From Patescibacteria group bacterium (GTDB taxonomy: Bacteria > Patescibacteriota > Microgenomatia > Levybacterales > UBA12049), in NCBI GenBank assembly GCA_038063075.1, contig JBBTVW010000051.1:1-30117 (forward strand): a stretch of DNA of 30,117 nucleotides. Direction: 5' to 3'. Below, piece by piece: positions 10,181 through 28,926 of this stretch; position 1 is the stretch's first letter, and each line of letters starts with the position of its first letter. A program made the position numbers and the translations under genes. Below the pieces are notes generated by a model. That model had not been told where the DNA came from. It did no database searches and saw only the letters and a list, made by a program, of their open reading frames with translations.

Positions 10181-11455
10181 TTAAGAACTAATAAAATCCG
10201 TAAGCCTAACTCCATCAACCTCTTTATCTGTTAATTTTTTTACGGTTTCATCATCACCTTTTTTCCGAGCATAATCAATTGCTATCTGTATAACTTCGCC
10301 TAATCTTTTTCTTTTTGATGTTTTTGCATCATCTCCTGTATCTTCAATTGTAGCATTATGTGTTAAGTTCATCCTTTTGGGAACTACAAAAACATCTGGA
10401 TATAATTCTTCTGTGGAAAGGTAAGGCAAAGCATGTCTCATAAACTCATCGCTTAATAAATAAGAGGTAATCCTCTCCATTCTTTCTTCTCTTGTCTCCG
10501 TAGCGCTACCATCCATCTCGGAAGGAATTGTTCTTCTAAGCATAGAGAAGTATAGTAAACTTGATGGAATAGTTGTGTCTTGTGGACTAACAACGCTTAC
10601 ACTAAAATCAGAATTTGGATCACTGTCTTCATCTTTCAAACGCCTGAATGCTTCCTCAAAAAATTCCACAGATGGTAAAAAGTCTTGAGCTAAAAATTGC
10701 TCTAAGTGATCTGCCCAAGATATGTGATCATACAAAATTGCTCTTTCAAGATCATCAGCTAGTCTAGGATCAGTGAGTAAGTCTGCCCATTTTACACTGT
10801 GAACAACACCCCAAGTACTCAACATTTTATTTTTTACCTCATCACTAAGATTAGGTATTAAATTTATCAGAAATTCTCGAGCCTCATCTAAAGAAAAATT
10901 GGCAACAATCTCCGCATTTGCATTGGTAAAATCAGCATAATCAAAAAAATCATAGGAACCGTCTCGAATACCTAATCTTGATATTGCTCTTCTAAATTCG
11001 TTATTATCACCAGGATTAGATTTAATTTTATGCCAATTATCTTCGGTGATAGGTTCATCCTCAACTGGTTGAAACATTTTTCTTACAGCTGGATTAGTAA
11101 CTAGAGCATAATGTTGAAGTACAAAATTTTCAGGATGTCCTTCAGTTTCAAATTGCGCATCTCTTAGAGAACGATGTGGCTTCGCTTCATCTAGCAAAAC
11201 TGAACTAACTACATCGCTTCGGAGTTCTTCTGGACTAGAATACCAGCTAATTAGAGCTTCTAAATGTTGTCCTTGGATCCATAATTCATTTGTTGCAACT
11301 AATAGAGCTCTTGATAATTCTCTTCTATCGGGTGGAATAACAATTGGAGAGTCGGGATAAGTCTCCACACGACCAAACCTTAATTTTCTTACAGGTGGTG
11401 TTTTAGCATCATTCTCAGGGCGAGAAGATTTTGATCGTTCTACTTTGTCGTTCAT
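10181..11455 (-). CDS. Orphan acidic soluble protein of unknown function, probably inserted
   Basis: 424-aa ORF with its own TGC-TATTAT box 6 nt before the ATG. It lies between the two secA-end copies. No family was recognised. Confidence 0.85.
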   Translation of the reverse strand: MNDKVERSKSSRPENDAKTPPVRKLRFGRVETYPDSPIVIPPDRRELSRALLVATNELWIQGQHLEALISWYSSPEELRSDVVSSVLLDEAKPHRSLRDAQFETEGHPENFVLQHYALVTNPAVRKMFQPVEDEPITEDNWHKIKSNPGDNNEFRRAISRLGIRDGSYDFFDYADFTNANAEIVANFSLDEAREFLINLIPNLSDEVKNKMLSTWGVVHSVKWADLLTDPRLADDLERAILYDHISWADHLEQFLAQDFLPSVEFFEEAFRRLKDEDSDPNSDFSVSVVSPQDTTIPSSLLYFSMLRRTIPSEMDGSATETREERMERITSYLLSDEFMRHALPYLSTEELYPDVFVVPKRMNLTHNATIEDTGDDAKTSKRKRLGEVIQIAIDYARKKGDDETVKKLTDKEVDGVRLTDFISS

Positions 11456-11473: not shown

Positions 11474-14173
11474 TTAATTTGGATAGTGACAATTCTTATA
11501 CTTCACGTGTGTTCCATCTGATTTAGTTCTTCCACACCAACATGGATCATTTCTGCCAAGCTTTTTCTTAACTATAGCTTTCTGATCATCTGAAACTTCT
11601 TTATTTACATTTGATCCAGCTGCATTTTGGGTAACACCAGGCTTAGTAAGTGGATTTTCAATAGGATGCTCATGATGAAGATGGATTTTATAAATTCTAT
11701 GAATCATTTCATCATCTATAGCATTTATTAATTTTTCAAACATTGCGTATGCTTCATTTTTATATTCAACTAATGGATCTTTCTGCCCATATCCTCTTAA
11801 GCCAATTCCTTGTCTTAAATTATCTATTGCATCTAAATGATCAACCCAAAGATTATCGACTACAGAAAGTGCTACATATCTTTCAAGTTGTCGCATAACC
11901 TCTTCTCCCATCTCTTTTTCTCTTTTTTGATAAAGATCATCAGCAATATTTGTTAAAAAGGAAGTTTTTTCTTCAAAGTTTTTTAACTGTTCAATTTGTG
12001 TAATTATTTGTTTAATTGAATTTTCATCAAAAGGTATTATGGTAGCAAATTGTTCTGCAATTTTTTCAGATGAGGATTTGCCTTCTTCGAAACTCTCAGA
12101 ATACATTACTACTAATGAGGTAATACTTGCATGAATTTTTTCAATAATATCTTCTCTTAATTTAGTTTCTTTATCATCGGCTTCTAAGACTGCCTTTCTT
12201 CTTTGATAAATTATTTCCCTTTGTTTATTTAAAACATCATCATAGTCAACTAAATGTTTTCTGATATCAAAATTATACCCCTCAACCTTAACCTGAGCTT
12301 GTTCTATTGCTCTTGAGACTAGTGGATGAGAAAGAGGTACATCTTCTGGCATATTAAATCTTGTCATTAGCCCCGATATTGTATCTCCACCAAAAAGCCT
12401 CATGATGTCATCATCAAGACCAACAAAGAATTGTGAAAGACCAGGATCACCTTGTCTTCCAGATCTTCCTCTTAACTGATTATCAATTCTTCTAGATTCA
12501 TGTCTTTCTGTTCCTATTACATATAATCCACCAAGATCCAAAACTTCCTTGTGTTTTCTTTCCCATTCTTTCCATTCTTTAGAATCCTTGTCATCAGTTC
12601 CATCAGCATTTCTTGGAGGCTCTCCACCTAAGATAATATCAACACCACGTCCTGCCATATTAGTTGCTACAGTTACTGCACCTTTTTCTCCTGCTTTTGC
12701 AATAATTTCTGCTTCTCTTTCATGATTTTTAGCATTTAATACTTCATGCTTTATTCCTTTTCTTTTTAGAAGCTCACTTACGATTTCATTCTTATCGATA
12801 GAGGTTGTTCCGACTAATACGGGCTGACCTCTTTTATGTGCTTTTTCAATCTCAACTGCAACTGCAGTATATTTTGCTCTAGAAGTTTTATATATAGCAT
12901 CTGCCATATCATTTCTTACCATGTCTCTATGAGTTGGAATAACAACAACATCTAATTTATAGATCTTATTAAACTCCTCAGCCTCTGTTACGGCAGTTCC
13001 TGTCATTCCTGCTAAAAGTTCGTACATTCTGAAATAATTTTGCAAAGAAACTGTTGCTAGTGTTTTTGACTCTCTTTGAATAACGACTGCTTCTTTTGCT
13101 TCGATAGCTTGATGGAGTCCTTCAGAAAGCCTTCTTCCAACCATAAGTCTTCCTGTGAATTCATCAACTAAGATTACTTCTCCGTCTTTTACTATATAAT
13201 CTTTTTCTTTATGAAAAAGAGTTCTTGCTTTTAAAGCTGCTTCTAGGTGATAAACGGTATCAAAATCTTTTTCATAGATATTTGCAATTCCATAAAGTTT
13301 TTCAATCTTTCCTATTCCATGATCTGTTAGGTGAGCTGTTCTTAGCTTTTCATCAATCTTATAATCAGTTTCTGAAGATAATTTATCTACAAGCTTTGCA
13401 TATTCATAATATTTTTTAGTAGGTTCTTCATCAGGAGCTGAAATAATATGTGGCGTTCTTGCTTCATCGATTAAAACAGAATCAACTTCATCAACAACTG
13501 CAAAATAAAAACCTCTTTGAGCTAATGAGTTCTTATCTTGGGCCATGTTATCCCTAAGATAATCAAAACCAAATTCTGAATTAATTCCATAAACAACATC
13601 GGCCAAATAAGCTTCTTTTCTTTCAATTGATTTTAAATGTAAAAGCCTATTATCCGTTGCCTCTTTGTTTACAAACTTGGGGTCAAAAAGAAAAGATTGT
13701 TCACTAATAATTGAAGATACGCTAAGTCCTAGGTAATTAAATATTGGTCCCATCCAACCTGCATCTCTTCTTGCCAAATAATCGTTTACAGTAACTAAAT
13801 GTACTCCTTTTCCAGTTAATGAGTGAAGATATAAGGCTGGAGTTGCAGATAATGTTTTTCCCTCTCCTGTTTTTTGCTCAGCTATTTTTCCATTAGCAAG
13901 TGAGGCTGCTGCCATAAGTTGAACATCAAAATGCCTAAGCCCTAATGTTCTAAAAGCTGCTTCTCTTGTTAGGGCAAAAGCTTCTGCCATTAAGCTTTCA
14001 AGTGGCTCACCATCTTCAACTCTTTCTTTTAATTCTTTTGTTTTTTTGGGGAAATCTGTAGCTTTTAATTTCTTAATCTTTGGTTCTAAACTATTGATCT
14101 CTTCAATTAGAGAGTTTAGCTTACTTATTTCTTTTTCATTGGAATCAAATAACTTTCCGAAGATATTTAGCAT
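11474..14173 (-). CDS. secA: Preprotein translocase subunit SecA
   Basis: QKTGEGKT, VDEVDSVLIDEARTP and RRIDNQLRGRSGRQGDPG motifs, plus a C-terminal SEC-C motif (GRNDPCWCG...KYKNCH); 899 aa. Confidence 0.99.
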   Translation of the reverse strand: MLNIFGKLFDSNEKEISKLNSLIEEINSLEPKIKKLKATDFPKKTKELKERVEDGEPLESLMAEAFALTREAAFRTLGLRHFDVQLMAAASLANGKIAEQKTGEGKTLSATPALYLHSLTGKGVHLVTVNDYLARRDAGWMGPIFNYLGLSVSSIISEQSFLFDPKFVNKEATDNRLLHLKSIERKEAYLADVVYGINSEFGFDYLRDNMAQDKNSLAQRGFYFAVVDEVDSVLIDEARTPHIISAPDEEPTKKYYEYAKLVDKLSSETDYKIDEKLRTAHLTDHGIGKIEKLYGIANIYEKDFDTVYHLEAALKARTLFHKEKDYIVKDGEVILVDEFTGRLMVGRRLSEGLHQAIEAKEAVVIQRESKTLATVSLQNYFRMYELLAGMTGTAVTEAEEFNKIYKLDVVVIPTHRDMVRNDMADAIYKTSRAKYTAVAVEIEKAHKRGQPVLVGTTSIDKNEIVSELLKRKGIKHEVLNAKNHEREAEIIAKAGEKGAVTVATNMAGRGVDIILGGEPPRNADGTDDKDSKEWKEWERKHKEVLDLGGLYVIGTERHESRRIDNQLRGRSGRQGDPGLSQFFVGLDDDIMRLFGGDTISGLMTRFNMPEDVPLSHPLVSRAIEQAQVKVEGYNFDIRKHLVDYDDVLNKQREIIYQRRKAVLEADDKETKLREDIIEKIHASITSLVVMYSESFEEGKSSSEKIAEQFATIIPFDENSIKQIITQIEQLKNFEEKTSFLTNIADDLYQKREKEMGEEVMRQLERYVALSVVDNLWVDHLDAIDNLRQGIGLRGYGQKDPLVEYKNEAYAMFEKLINAIDDEMIHRIYKIHLHHEHPIENPLTKPGVTQNAAGSNVNKEVSDDQKAIVKKKLGRNDPCWCGRTKSDGTHVKYKNCHYPN

Positions 14174-14179
14174 ACACTT

Positions 14180-14188
14180 ATCTTAACA
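14180..14188 (-). promoter_or_regulatory. Extended -10 promoter of secA (predicted leaderless)
   Basis: TGT-TAAGAT, then 6 nt (aagtgt), then ATG. No SD is present. Confidence 0.6.
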
Positions 14189-14200
14189 CAATTTAGCTTC

Positions 14201-14232
14201 AAAAAAAATCCCTCACCGTTACAGCGAGGGAT
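14201..14232 (-). terminator. Intrinsic terminator
   Basis: ATCCCTCGCTG-TAA-CGGTGAGGGAT forms an 11-bp stem with two G-U pairs, followed by a T run. Confidence 0.85.
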
Positions 14233-14282
14233 ATCAATTGATCAATTGATAATAATTGGTAATGTTCCAAATTACTTACCAA

Positions 14283-14312
14283 CTATTTCTTCTTCTTCTT
14301 TTTCTTTGCCAT
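14283..14312 (-). CDS. Putative micro-ORF encoding MAKKKKKKK (9 aa)
   Basis: ATG GCA AAG AAA AAG AAG AAG AAG AAA TAG. SD AGGGGGTGA lies 6 nt upstream, with a promoter upstream and a terminator downstream. Confidence 0.6.
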   Translation of the reverse strand: MAKKKKKKK

Positions 14313-14380
14313 TTTATTTCACCCCCTTTTTTGATTTATAAATTATTAAATTAATTAAAATCTAGCTTTAATTTAATTTA

Positions 14381-14409
14381 ATATTGGATCATTTTTAGAA
14401 GAATGTCAA
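14381..14409 (-). promoter_or_regulatory. Sigma70-type promoter upstream of the micro-ORF
   Basis: TTGACA (14409-14404), 17-nt spacer, CAATAT (14386-14381). Confidence 0.5.
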
Positions 14410-14477
14410 GAAAGGCTATTAGCTTTAAATTGTGAAGTTTAGATTGAATTAGCAATTAAAATTAATTAGGCTATTTT

Positions 14478-16327: not shown

Positions 16328-16534
16328 ATGAAAGAAACAACACCAAATTCAACAGAAACATGGATATTCCCAAATGAACCTATAAGAAAAGGCCCAAGGC
16401 CTGTTTTTCCAGAAACACCTATTAAAGTAGTTAATGAAACCTACTTAGCACAATCTAGGCTTAGGGCAAGACGAAGAAGACATCAAAGAGGATTTGAACT
16501 TACTGCAAGATATTCAACATCTAGGCAGCATTAA
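16328..16534 (+). CDS. Small basic hypothetical protein
   Basis: 68-aa ORF filling a gap, with TGC-TATTAT upstream and an Arg-rich stretch (RLRARRRRHQR). It overlaps the lysS end by 14 nt. Confidence 0.5.
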   Translation: MKETTPNSTETWIFPNEPIRKGPRPVFPETPIKVVNETYLAQSRLRARRRRHQRGFELTARYSTSRQH

Positions 16535-18029
16535 ATCTTTTTTTAATAAACTCTTTATCTAAAGAAAGAATAAGCCATGCAGCTTTTGGTCCATGATCTT
16601 TTCCAATCAAACTTAAGTAAATGGCAGCAAAAGTCTCTTTACCGCTTAACCCTAACTCTTTACCTATTTCATAAATTTTTGTTTGAAACTCTTCAGGATC
16701 CCAAGTTTTATCAACTTCTTCTGCAATTTTTCCTAAAACTTCTTTTTGTTTTTCTGACAAATCTTGAGCCTCTTTTGGCAATTCATTTTGTACATGAAAT
16801 TTTTTATCCTCAGGCGCATATTTTTCCAACCAAACTTTAGCAAATGGTACCCATTCATTTAGTCCATTTTTCTTAATCTCCCCTGCCATATTTGGCATCT
16901 GTACCCATTGAGATAAAATTGAAAATTTAACTTTTGGTGGATGCTTTATTTCGTTAATTTGAGAATATTTAAAAATTTTTGCTTTTTCATTATCTTCTAA
17001 GCTTTTATTTTTTACTGCGTCGAAATATATTTGCGCGTACTCTTCATATTCATCGTATAATCTAGGGATTAAATCTGTCCCTAGTGGCGTAAATTCCACA
17101 GCCCTACTTGGCGGATTTTTAATCATTAAAAATCTAACTAATTCAGGTGCTAGTATTTCTAGCAACTGTTCTCCATTTAAGCCAACACCTTTTGAAGAGG
17201 CCATTTTCTTACCTCCTGAAAGAAAAAATTCATATGAGAATTTAAAAGGCGGTTTAACTTTGAATACATCAGTAATTATTCTCATAGCCACATCATAAGT
17301 GCCACCAGCGGATGCATGATCTTTACCAGCCCCTTCTATAGTTACACCGAAAATCCACCATTTAGAAGCCCATTCTACTTTAAAAGGCATTTTACTATTT
17401 CCCTTAAAAGGGGACATTTTACCAATCGTTCCACAACCTTTTGCCCAAATTACTAAATCTGATTTACAAACGAATTCTACTTCTTTTCCATCCCATCCAA
17501 TTACTTTGGTTGTTCCTAATTTTCCGCAATTAGGACATACTACTTGAAGAGGATACCAATCATCACCAAGAGTTTTTTTATATATCTCTTCATATACCCT
17601 TCTTACATCTTTTACATGATCTAGAACAAATTTTATTGCATTATCAAAAGTACCATCTTTATAGAGATCACTTGTTTTATAAATCTCTCCATTTATTCCT
17701 AATTCTTTCAGTATTTTCCTTAATTTATTACCGAAATAATCAGCAAATGAACCATTCCCATCGGGAGAAGGAACAAGATAAATCGGAATACCCATGTATT
17801 TTTCGTGGGTTTGTTTTAAATCAGTAGGTAAACCATCCAAAGGATCTGCATCATCAAATCCATAAGTAAATTTTACTCCTATTCCTCTTTCTTTAAGAAT
17901 TCGAAAAAGAACATCATGCATCACTGGACCTTTCATCGAACCCATGTGAACCATTCCGGACGGAGTCCAGGCGTCATTTATCCATTCATTAACTTTTCTA
18001 TCTTCAAGTAATCGATCTGCCCAAAACAT
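16521..18029 (-). CDS. lysS: Class I lysine--tRNA ligase
   Basis: TPSGMVHMG (HIGH-like), GGKKMASSKG (KMSKS-like), CxxC pairs, and the C-terminal G..HGP anticodon-domain motif. Confidence 0.95.
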   Translation of the reverse strand: MFWADRLLEDRKVNEWINDAWTPSGMVHMGSMKGPVMHDVLFRILKERGIGVKFTYGFDDADPLDGLPTDLKQTHEKYMGIPIYLVPSPDGNGSFADYFGNKLRKILKELGINGEIYKTSDLYKDGTFDNAIKFVLDHVKDVRRVYEEIYKKTLGDDWYPLQVVCPNCGKLGTTKVIGWDGKEVEFVCKSDLVIWAKGCGTIGKMSPFKGNSKMPFKVEWASKWWIFGVTIEGAGKDHASAGGTYDVAMRIITDVFKVKPPFKFSYEFFLSGGKKMASSKGVGLNGEQLLEILAPELVRFLMIKNPPSRAVEFTPLGTDLIPRLYDEYEEYAQIYFDAVKNKSLEDNEKAKIFKYSQINEIKHPPKVKFSILSQWVQMPNMAGEIKKNGLNEWVPFAKVWLEKYAPEDKKFHVQNELPKEAQDLSEKQKEVLGKIAEEVDKTWDPEEFQTKIYEIGKELGLSGKETFAAIYLSLIGKDHGPKAAWLILSLDKEFIKKRFNAA

Positions 18030-27487: not shown

Positions 27488-28504
27488 ATGCAACAAGACC
27501 TGCTCATAATACTTATATTTATTCTTGCTGGATTTGGAATCCTCTTATTTTTTATAAATAAAAAACTTGATAATACTAACAACAGTAAAACTGACCAAGC
27601 ACTACTTGAATGGCTAAAAAGTATGCAAGTTTCCATCAACTCCTCTTCTAATAATATGGTAAAGACTCTCCAGGAAAATTCTAAACAATTAAATGAACGC
27701 TTAGAGAAAACAGCTATGGTTATAAAAGATGTAGAAAGAGAAGTTGGACAAATGAGTGAAATTGGAAGAAACATGAGAGAACTCCAGGATTTCTTAAAAA
27801 GCCCAAAACTTAGAGGCAATATTGGTGAACAAGTATTAAAAGATCTTATTGCCCAAATGTTTCCAAAAGAAAGCTTTTTTTTGCAATACACATTTAAATC
27901 AGGAGAAAAAGTAGACGCTGCAATTAAGACAGATGCTGGAATATTATCTATTGATTCAAAGTTTCCAATGGAAAATTTTCAAAAAATGTCAAAAGCAAAA
28001 GACGAGATGGAAAAAGAAATATTTCAAAAAGAATTTATTAGAGATTTAAGAAAACATATTGACGCAATTTCTCAAAAGTATATTGCACCAAGCGAGGGAA
28101 CAATGGATTTTGCCCTCATGTATGTTCCAAGTGAATCTGTGTATTACGAAGTAGTAAATTTACCCCAAGTTCTAGACTATGCCAGGAAACAAAGAGTTTA
28201 TATGGTTTCTCCATCAACACTTTATGCTCATTTACAAACCATACTTTTATCATTTGAAGGAAAAAGGATTGAGAGTAAGTCTAAAGAATTGTTTGCGCTT
28301 TTAAGAAATGTTTTAAACGACTATGAAAAGGTTGAAGAAAATTTATCAGTGCTTGGAAAACATATTAATAACTCATATGCTCAATTTTCAAACGTATCAA
28401 GTGGTTTTACAAGTATGGGAAACGAGCTGAAGTTGACAAGAAAGCTTGAATACAATAAAAAAGAAATTACACAAAATGATCAAAAAGGAGGTGAAATTTT
28501 ATGA
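27488..28504 (+). CDS. rmuC: DNA recombination protein RmuC
   Basis: TM helix plus coiled coil, then PKLRGNIGE, IDSKFP and DFALMYVPSESVY. Confidence 0.9.
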   Translation: MQQDLLIILIFILAGFGILLFFINKKLDNTNNSKTDQALLEWLKSMQVSINSSSNNMVKTLQENSKQLNERLEKTAMVIKDVEREVGQMSEIGRNMRELQDFLKSPKLRGNIGEQVLKDLIAQMFPKESFFLQYTFKSGEKVDAAIKTDAGILSIDSKFPMENFQKMSKAKDEMEKEIFQKEFIRDLRKHIDAISQKYIAPSEGTMDFALMYVPSESVYYEVVNLPQVLDYARKQRVYMVSPSTLYAHLQTILLSFEGKRIESKSKELFALLRNVLNDYEKVEENLSVLGKHINNSYAQFSNVSSGFTSMGNELKLTRKLEYNKKEITQNDQKGGEIL

Positions 28505-28926
28505 ATACAAAATTAATAGGAATCTCTTTAGTAGTTATAGTATTAGTGGTTGCTGCTGCACTTGTTTTAAAAACCAAAGACACAAGTAAAACCAATACAG
28601 CTACTACCAACCAAACGCCAACTATAACCACACAGCAAGCAATAGAAAAAAAACCTAACACAACTAGCGTAGTAGTTACAACTAACGGTTATGAACCAAA
28701 AAATATAACTATAAAACAAGGAGACAAAGTTAGTTGGACAAACCAAAGCGGTACAGAAGTTACTGTAAACTCTGATGTTCATCCAACCCATTTGCTTTGG
28801 CCATTCTTAAATCTTGGTAATTTTAAACAAGGAGAAATAGTTTCAGTAATCTTTGAAAAAGCTGGAACATATACCTACCATAATCACTTCAACTCAAGTC
28901 AAGTTGGATCAGTTAAGGTAGAATAA
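28501..28926 (+). CDS. Membrane-anchored cupredoxin-fold protein lacking the type-1 copper Cys/Met
   Basis: YEPKNITIKQGDKVSWTN and GTYTY...G.VKV fold signatures. SD GGAGGTGA is present. The protein has no Cys. Confidence 0.8.
   Translation: MNTKLIGISLVVIVLVVAAALVLKTKDTSKTNTATTNQTPTITTQQAIEKKPNTTSVVVTTNGYEPKNITIKQGDKVSWTNQSGTEVTVNSDVHPTHLLWPFLNLGNFKQGEIVSVIFEKAGTYTYHNHFNSSQVGSVKVE

Follow-up and report, generated by a model that had tools for sequence, protein, structure and literature searches.

Between serS and secA, the 30,117-nucleotide stretch of Patescibacteria DNA analyzed here (the window; assembly GCA_038063075.1) carries an open reading frame of only nine codons that encodes Met-Ala-Lys7, and the question is whether so small a frame can be a gene and, if it is, what its product does. 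The initial annotation of this locus credited the frame with a promoter, a Shine-Dalgarno (SD) sequence and a terminator of its own, and offered three natures for the product: a polycationic micro-peptide, a lysine-sensing leader peptide comparable to the his leader, or a dual-function sRNA. In the analysis below the first of these emerges as the best supported, with frame, charge, and start and stop codons apparently under selection, while the lysine-sensing leader falls away.

The promoter, SD, ORF, two hairpins (P1 and P2) and terminator all lie on the minus strand, within the coordinates stated in the initial annotation, and their positions are collected in Table 1. The genes on this strand are, in order, those for class I LysRS, a Ham1-family protein and SerRS, then the micro-gene, then that for the SecA ATPase.

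Table 1. Positions of the elements of the micro-gene unit and of the secA start, in window coordinates.
Feature	Coordinates	Strand	Remarks
Upstream promoter element TTAAAGC	14422..14428	-	12 nt before -35; family consensus TTGARGC
-35 hexamer TTGACA	14404..14409	-	sequence and relatives
-10 hexamer CAATAT	14381..14386	-	17-nt spacer after -35
5' UTR, about 62 nt, A/U-rich	14313..14374	-	no structure around the SD in the window genome (fold)
Shine-Dalgarno AGGGGGTGA	14319..14327	-	6-nt spacer to ATG
Micro-ORF Met-Ala-Lys7, TAG stop	14283..14312	-	ATG GCA AAG AAA AAG AAG AAG AAG AAA TAG (Lys: five AAG, two AAA)
Hairpin P1	14256..14282	-	arms UUGGUAAGU and AC(A)UUACCAA, 8-nt loop
Hairpin P2, palindrome UAUCAAUU-GAUC-AAUUGAUA	14232..14251	-	family consensus UACCAAUU-GAUC-ARUUGGUA
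Intrinsic terminator	14201..14232	-	11-pair stem (6 G-C; 14232-14208), 3-nt loop, T8 at 14208-14201
secA extended -10 TGT TAAGAT and secA ATG (at 14173)	14171..14188	-	6-nt spacer; sequence and relatives

With a transcription start inferred near position 14374, the 11-pair stem and its T-run would close a transcript of about 175 nt, in keeping with the short, strongly terminated transcription unit first described. This predicted RNA folds with a z-score of -3.96, none of 200 shuffled sequences folding equally well; in the predicted structure the SD and ORF are single-stranded, and there are three hairpins in a row. Searched with Rfam at gathering thresholds, the whole window gives no match, the best sub-threshold match under relaxed E-values being rnk_leader (27.9 bits against a threshold of 50), and ARAGORN detects neither a tRNA nor a tmRNA in the window.

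The initial annotation read the promoter as TTGACA and CAATAT separated by 17 nt. A promoter scan of the window ranked a different combination highest, an 18-nt spacer followed by AATATT (10 of 12 matches). We adopted the 17-nt reading because the consensus -10 element among relatives is CAnnAT at exactly this spacing (CACGAT in 22 copies, CAACAT in nine and CAATAT in six). TTGAC[AT] occurs within 150 nt upstream in 76 of the 81 relatives' copies, and in 67 of these 76 the -35 hexamer is itself preceded, 11-12 nt upstream, by TTGARGC. This element could be an activator site or an UP-like site. The arrangement of TTGARGC plus -35 is found in the window genome only at the micro-gene locus and at one further site that is probably due to chance, and so is not a general promoter feature; if it is the site of a dedicated activator, as it may be, the micro-gene would be regulated rather than constitutive.

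The ribosome-binding site stands out against its genome. The window genome (709,822 bp in 65 contigs, 32.2% G+C, 95.7% complete) is poor in SD sequences: a strong 5-mer SD precedes just 37 of 525 long ORFs, and there is no enrichment of G upstream of start codons. What is found genome-wide is a TANNNT peak located exactly 6 nt before ATG codons (79 occurrences versus a background of about 25), a pattern characteristic of leaderless mRNAs. The stronger motif G[AG]GGTGA with a properly spaced start codon occurs at 29 sites, about 21 of which precede ORFs of at least 33 aa, mostly short proteins; the same SD type is found before HU, YbaB/EbfC, ATP synthase subunit c, LemA and several small membrane proteins. 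The strong SD thus appears to be reserved for a few small proteins, and the micro-ORF bears the translation signal of a presumably abundant class, which bears out the early remark that such an SD is unusual here. In relatives, 5-9 nt separate GGTGA from the start codon in all 81 copies of a dataset that was itself selected for GGTGA, the commonest form of the SD being AAGGAGGTGA. Their 5' UTRs range from 25 to 95 nt and contain lineage-specific hairpins, and the 5' UTR is predicted to sequester the SD no more often than in shuffled controls (32 of 69 copies versus a fraction of 0.47).

The initial annotation made conservation of the frame and SD in relatives the measure of its claim, and proposed a search for an SD followed by ATG GCN (AAR)n and a stop codon between serS and secA. 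About 91 of the 194 family genomes, and two sister families besides, share such a conserved unit at this position, so that frame and SD persist across an order of ultra-small Levybacteria, and reversed controls exclude a chance match. The strict nine-codon pattern was found in 36 of the 194 family genomes and 28 of 89 genera, always as a single copy, with no match in the reversed control. When the ORF was left unconstrained and only an SD, a gap of 55-85 nt and CCAATTGATC were specified, 94 family genomes matched, about 80 of them with the true element and the others by chance within genes; every one of these roughly 80 true matches contains an in-frame Lys/Arg-rich ORF that ends at P1. A third pattern, an SD followed by M-x-K-K and three further basic residues, was applied to the whole order and matched 59 of 193 genomes of the family and 1 of 49 and 2 of 2 genomes of the sister families. 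The reversed control gave one match each for the two looser patterns.

The position of the unit is equally constant. Among 81 distinct copies, secA lies downstream in 77 and serS upstream in 79, and the unit is single-copy in the window genome. In DNA searches of 41 relatives, similarity between genera was limited to the SD, ORF, hairpins and terminator; a terminator-like hairpin with a T-run follows in at least 66 of the 81 relatives, and its sequence differs among them. Two genera missed by both patterns have diverged copies at the same locus, of 15 and 23 codons. In two other genera serS directly abuts secA, and in a fifth a different gene is found upstream of secA; since some genera (genomes G056 and G166) lack the unit in the gap between serS and secA, it is either dispensable there or relocated.

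Whether the frame is translated can be judged from how it varies. We compiled coding statistics from the 81 distinct copies, which comprise 762 codons after the initiator Met; the copies are related to one another, so these counts overstate their independence. Thirty-six of the ORFs encode 9 aa, 20 encode 10, nine encode 11, seven encode 12 and the remaining nine encode 13-19, and the longest orthologue, in genome G104, has 23 codons and falls outside this 81-copy range. ATG is the start codon in 77 copies and GTG in four, and the stop codon is TAA in 64 and TAG in 17. The residues after Met are overwhelmingly basic (561 Lys, 101 Ala, 76 Arg, eight Ser, six Pro, five Thr, four Gly and one Val). 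None of the 762 codons is acidic: GAA and GAG are absent, even though each is a single transition away from AAA or AAG. The micro-peptides in these copies also contain no aromatic or large hydrophobic residue. What variation there is consists of exchanges between Lys and Arg and of in-frame insertions of Ala, Ser, Thr or Gly. Among the purine-only codons, G occupies the third position in 382 and the second in 72, but the first in only four. Arg is also spelled CGA, four times, which argues that selection preserves the residue rather than a purine tract. A separate observation concerns the in-frame changes in length, which could in part reflect triplet slippage of (AAG)n instead of purifying selection.

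Codon choice points in the same direction. AAG accounts for 68% of Lys codons in the micro-ORFs compared with 20.6% in the long ORFs of the genome, and a run of nine or more A residues is found in only one of the 81 copies, where 12.3 would be expected if the same codons were placed at random and 59.7 under genome codon usage. The suggestion that AAG is used to avoid poly(A), and that this reflects selection on translation, therefore gains support: avoidance of slippery poly(A) implies that in-frame decoding matters. Residue 2 is Ala in 74 copies, Pro in six and Gly in one. Methionine aminopeptidase permits removal of the initiator Met when residue 2 is Ala, Pro or Gly, and because it is always one of these the initiator Met is probably removed; the mature product would then probably be Ala-Lys7, with a net charge of about +8. 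Together, the patterns of charge, frame and codon usage indicate that selection acts on a translated polycation. The comparison among relatives thus shows a predicted unit that is conserved at a single locus across the order, with selection apparently acting on reading frame, positive charge and accurate decoding, and on these grounds we consider it very probable that the micro-gene is a real, translated, stand-alone gene.

Given its position, a tempting explanation is that the ORF is a leader peptide of the hisL or SecM type, by which the progress of a ribosome over seven Lys codons gates the terminator and so attenuates or monitors expression of secA. The synteny is strict, with secA downstream in nearly all copies and in all three families, and the tandem Lys codons are indeed followed by a terminator. 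However, folds in which a competing antiterminator helix was sought contain none that overlaps the terminator, P2 ending at the start of the terminator stem. secA also has a promoter of its own: in 60 of 77 relatives TGnTAnnnT precedes the secA ATG by 4-9 nt, matching the genome-wide leaderless signature, and with an extended -10 element 6 nt before the ATG the secA mRNA of the window genome is probably leaderless or nearly so. An RNA that read through the terminator would have an internal secA AUG that lacks an SD. The codons that would be sensed are not kept as Lys, since 76 Arg, 101 Ala and 24 Ser, Pro, Thr, Gly or Val are found among the 762 codons, and a nine-residue peptide with no hydrophobic residue has neither the signal nor the arrest motif of SecM or MifM. 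Nor does secA have an SD that a stalled ribosome could unmask, and a terminator stands between the two genes. The spacing between P2 and the secA ATG spans a continuous range, from 55 to more than 107 nt; serS simply abuts secA where the unit is missing; and similar micro-ORFs are found in unrelated contexts elsewhere. Neither a hisL-like nor a SecM-like reading therefore passes the tests that define it, because there is no antiterminator, secA has its own promoter and the Lys codons are exchangeable, and we regard control of secA by a leader peptide as highly unlikely. The lysine-sensing leader of the initial annotation fares no better: Lys is replaced by Arg (including Arg spelled CGA), the run is interrupted by Ala, Ser, Thr or Gly, nothing competes with the terminator, secA is separately transcribed, and secA has nothing to do with lysine supply. 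As judged from the predicted signals, the comparisons show a micro-gene that is closed by a terminator of its own and exerts no control over secA.

Downstream of the ORF, the 3' UTR appears to follow a universal layout of a predicted hairpin at the stop codon, then P2, then the terminator. Between the stop codon and the start of P1 there are 0-2 nt in 70 of 81 copies; in the window, the helix of P1 extends over the stop codon. The basal helix of P1, UUGGUAA/UUACCAA, can pair in 96.5% of alignment cells; its apex consists of GC, an 8-nt loop containing UUUGGA, and GC, or, in many relatives, of unrelated G+C-rich stem-loops of varying length. The core of P2, CCAAUUGAUCARUUGG, is nearly invariant across the order, and the pairing potential of the basal P2 helix is 93.8%. 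In 70 of the 81 copies P1 and P2 share a middle arm, so that they are mutually exclusive, and they are nearly isoenergetic (medians of -9.6 and -7.7 kcal/mol). In the remaining 11 copies, including that of the window, the middle arm is duplicated and P1 and P2 can form together, and in genome G028 of a sister family P1 is replaced by an unrelated hairpin; a strict switch between P1 and P2 is therefore not universal. Stop-codon readthrough or frameshifting into P1 and P2 was also considered as a conserved feature and rejected, as the linker between the stop codon and P1 can be 0, 1 or 2 nt long and the apical inserts are of different sizes.

A nearly invariant palindrome might also be a DNA operator for a dimeric DNA-binding protein, next to which the ORF lies by coincidence. 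P2 is a perfect repeat of 16-22 bp, and covariation is not strong enough to establish an RNA helix: it is not significant on either the basal P1 helix or P2, with two and one double changes respectively, because these helices hardly vary. The only compensatory double change in P2, from C-G to U-A, is that of the window's own copy. The case for pairing at the RNA level rests instead on the swapped apical stems of P1 and on the asymmetry between strands of the non-Watson-Crick cells of P2, of which 56 are G-U on the transcribed strand and only four A-C; this asymmetry fits an RNA and has no meaning for a DNA palindrome. The palindrome also lies within the transcription unit, always 0-2 nt or one hairpin past the stop codon, has no fixed phasing to the secA promoter, and is a single site per genome. 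We consider a DNA operator a very remote prospect. Two specific forms of it were rejected outright: a multi-site operator, as P2 is single-locus in the six genomes checked (the window genome and five relatives), and a phased secA operator, as the P2-secA distances vary continuously.

If P2 acts as RNA, its near-invariance points to a sequence-specific partner. It is conceivable that the unit is centered on its RNA, a translation-gated riboregulator or dual-function sRNA in which P2 is the chief element recognized by a protein or RNA partner, the job of the ORF being to bring in ribosomes that convert P1 into P2. No other part of the unit, the ORF included, is as strongly conserved as the P2 core; P2 occurs at one locus in each genome checked and always together with the ORF in the order; and both its strand-specific mismatches and the shared arm with its near-equal energies in most copies would fit such a role. 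On the other hand, a ribosome-loading ORF needs no all-basic peptide, no exclusion of Glu codons and no avoidance of A-runs. The switch is not universal, the window's copy being among those in which P1 and P2 form together and P1 of G028 being unrelated, and no complementarity to a target and no Rfam match were found. We therefore rate an RNA-centered unit as possible but rather unlikely.

Our preferred reading, to which we give about an even chance of being correct, is that the product is a free polycation, Ala-Lys7, that acts on RNA, DNA or ribosomes and whose synthesis is limited by the hairpins of the 3' UTR. A dedicated promoter would produce the RNA of about 175 nt, and one of the strongest SD sequences in the genome would drive translation of Met-Ala-Lys7. 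We infer that the peptide acts in trans and largely independently of sequence, as an encoded counterpart of polyamines or of protamine-like tails. The hairpins behind the stop codon may tune the output of the gene itself, although we propose this more tentatively: a terminating ribosome would melt P1 at or over the stop codon, freeing the shared arm in those 70 copies that have one so that P2 could form, and this change from P1 to P2 would make sense as dosage feedback if too much of the product is harmful. The composition of the peptide is fixed and its length and residue order drift freely, which fits a nonspecific electrostatic binder and is atypical of structural ribosomal proteins. The near-invariance of P2 is an observation that a nonspecific polycation leaves unaccounted for.

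The proposed likeness to polyamines can be set against gene content. The window genome has no Spermine_synth, Orn_Arg_deC_N or AdoMet_dc domain, and neither do most of its relatives, whether or not they carry the micro-gene. Spermine_synth was detected in 23 of 194 family genomes, namely seven of about 91 carriers and 16 of about 103 non-carriers, a weak difference among non-independent genomes in which many of the matches lie in ORFs of 500-990 aa. A role as a polyamine surrogate is compatible with the absence of these domains, but it is not supported by the family distribution, which is not clearly complementary.

A ribosomal role deserves separate consideration. A tiny and extremely basic peptide with a strong SD and promoter could be a stoichiometric ribosomal micro-protein like bL37, bS22, bTHX or eL41 that fills a pocket in rRNA, with P1 and P2 mimicking the rRNA site for autoregulation. 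Autoregulatory mRNA hairpins are typical of ribosomal protein genes, and the start of the micro-peptide, M-A-K-K, is one that we take to resemble the start of bL37. The known tiny ribosomal proteins, however, keep their length and specific residues, while the length of the micro-peptide varies from 9 to 23 residues within one order with no fixed position beyond residues 1-4, and some genera lack the gene at this locus. We accordingly consider a stoichiometric ribosomal protein improbable. A remnant of bL34, bL36 or bS21 was ruled out, as all three are present in the window genome.

We also looked for similar genes beyond the order, scanning one genome per species for an SD followed by M-A/P-K-K; the figures that follow describe a sample among the matches listed and not a census. 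Outside Levybacteria, and besides FtsK-like N-termini that are irrelevant here, the matches listed include at least 44 SD-led ORFs of 8-20 codons, in hosts from Aenigmatarchaeota, Micrarchaeota, Woese-, Pace- and Nanoarchaeota, Omnitrophota, NC10 and Bdellovibrionales. Among these 44 listed matches, 35 lie in intergenic gaps, and 27 are followed by a T-run. Within a sample from a single order of Aenigmatarchaeota, SD-led ORFs beginning MAKK were found in 18 of 51 genomes, mostly with 6-13 codons and with no match in the reversed control; up to five copies were found in one genome of this sample, and a few of the matches are the N-termini of longer proteins. Similar SD-led polylysine micro-ORFs thus occur, as predicted frames, in DPANN archaea. 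This distribution invites the speculative proposal, which we regard as possible but doubtful, that in the ultra-small symbiotic cells of the CPR and DPANN and in several other phyla free oligolysines of 6-25 residues, the products of dedicated and strongly translated micro-genes, replace neutralization of charge on RNA, DNA or ribosomes by polyamines or protamine-like proteins, and that a lineage-specific invariant hairpin senses the product and limits its synthesis.

If it is translated, the nine-codon micro-gene would rank with the shortest conserved stand-alone protein-coding genes that we know of, and annotation of reduced genomes would be missing a recurrent class of polycation genes that apparently spans Bacteria and Archaea. 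An encoded oligolysine would be relevant to the balancing of nucleic-acid charge in cells with minimal metabolism, and the invariant hairpin paired with the ORF offers a tractable experimental handle. The analysis also corrects the tempting interpretation of the locus as SecM-like or hisL-like control of secA.

A full-text search of the literature found no description of the micro-gene, and a collection of about 15 billion predicted proteins does not include its 23-aa orthologue. Among known systems, the micro-gene belongs to none of the families for which we were able to test the defining features. Like hisL, trpL, thrL, pheL and the E. coli SecM-secA pair, it is a short upstream ORF with a run of one residue and a terminator, and SecM is likewise located upstream of secA; it differs from these attenuators and from SecM in the missing antiterminator, the independent secA promoter, the exchangeable residue and the lack of a signal or arrest motif. 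With the tiny ribosomal proteins bL37 (about 24 aa), bTHX (about 26 aa), bS22 (about 33 aa) and eL41 (about 25 aa) it shares a very short Lys/Arg-rich product encoded by its own gene, easily missed by gene finders and presumably highly expressed, but it has only 9 residues (9-23 in orthologues), is conserved only in M-A/P-(A)-K-K, and drifts in length within a single order. A likeness in composition, that to the histone H1-like chlamydial proteins Hc1 and Hc2, to AlgP and to the C-terminus of PhaF, is seen in the 13-23-aa orthologues, in which low-complexity Lys/Ala sequence, such as a nonspecific binder of nucleic acids would be expected to have, forms AKK/KKA repeats; these repeats are confined to the longer orthologues, the window's copy being pure Lys. 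Those proteins are at least 100 aa long or are tails of folded domains, whereas the micro-gene encodes the repeat alone, which after loss of Met is down to eight residues.

The micro-gene encoding Met-Ala-Lys7, between serS and secA, carries an upstream element of the family form TTGARGC that could be an activator site. The element is gene-specific, and in 67 of 76 relatives it is placed 11-12 nt 5' of the micro-gene -35 hexamer. A second copy, TTGAAGC, lies at 14202-14196 in the window's genus, after the T-run of the terminator. The Levybacteria-type element with P1 and P2, the two hairpins that follow the micro-gene stop codon, also occurs in several public bins titled 'uncultured Gammaproteobacteria', which are probably mislabelled MAGs.

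Across the genome, no more than 7% of the long ORFs are preceded by a strong SD. SDs of the G[AG]GGTGA type are rare and are found ahead of a limited number of genes, most of them short, among them those for HU, YbaB/EbfC, ATP synthase subunit c, LemA, DUF378, DUF5676, DUF5679 and a cupredoxin-like protein; these look like a high-expression class within an otherwise SD-less genome. The secA mRNA appears to be leaderless, with an extended -10 placed 6 nt ahead of the ATG, and genome-wide the TANNNT motif has its maximum at 6 nt ahead of the ATG (79 of 525 long ORFs, versus approximately 25 at other distances). Directly 3' of secA is an ORF of 424 aa without a Pfam match at E <= 0.001. The gene for a class I lysyl-tRNA synthetase shares its strand with the polylysine micro-gene and is the third gene upstream of it, and no evidence of a functional link between the two was found.

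Features and loci discussed in the text (L, individual loci collected in the searches; G, compared genomes)
Feature	Position or loci	Strand	Basis
Micro-gene upstream element, TTGARGC	14422-14428	-	comparison with relatives (L009-L038 and others)
secA extended -10 (TGT TAAGAT), 6 nt, ATG	14171-14188	-	sequence
424-aa ORF	window 10181-11455	-	
Lysyl-tRNA synthetase, class I type (PF01921)	window 16521-18029	-	
Cupredoxin-like protein gene, G[AG]GGTGA-type SD	window 28501-28926	+	
Genes with G[AG]GGTGA-type SD, this genome	contigs C56:756-1028, C11:3341-3619, C61:9811-10017 and 16 others (L204-L222)		
Bins under Gammaproteobacteria title	L041, L050, L089, L103, L104, L108, L117		
DPANN polylysine micro-ORFs	L043, L047, L049, L051, L053, L054, L057, L067, L070, L081, L083, L090, L093, L100, L111 and others		
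Lys-head/Cys-tail micro-ORFs, Aenigmatarchaeota	G287:C2:39904-39979, G287:C2:40738-40812, G279:C2:885658-885732		

Among the matches listed, SD-led polylysine micro-ORFs of 6-14 codons are also present in DPANN archaea (the loci tabulated above and genomes G245-G299), where the majority of those listed are intergenic with a T-run 3' of the frame. Some of these genomes hold multiple copies (five in G287, four in G279), several loci carry tandem pairs, and in some Aenigmatarchaeota the micro-ORF joins a Lys-rich head to a Cys-rich tail, as in M-A-K-K-K-K-E-S-G-C-C-C.
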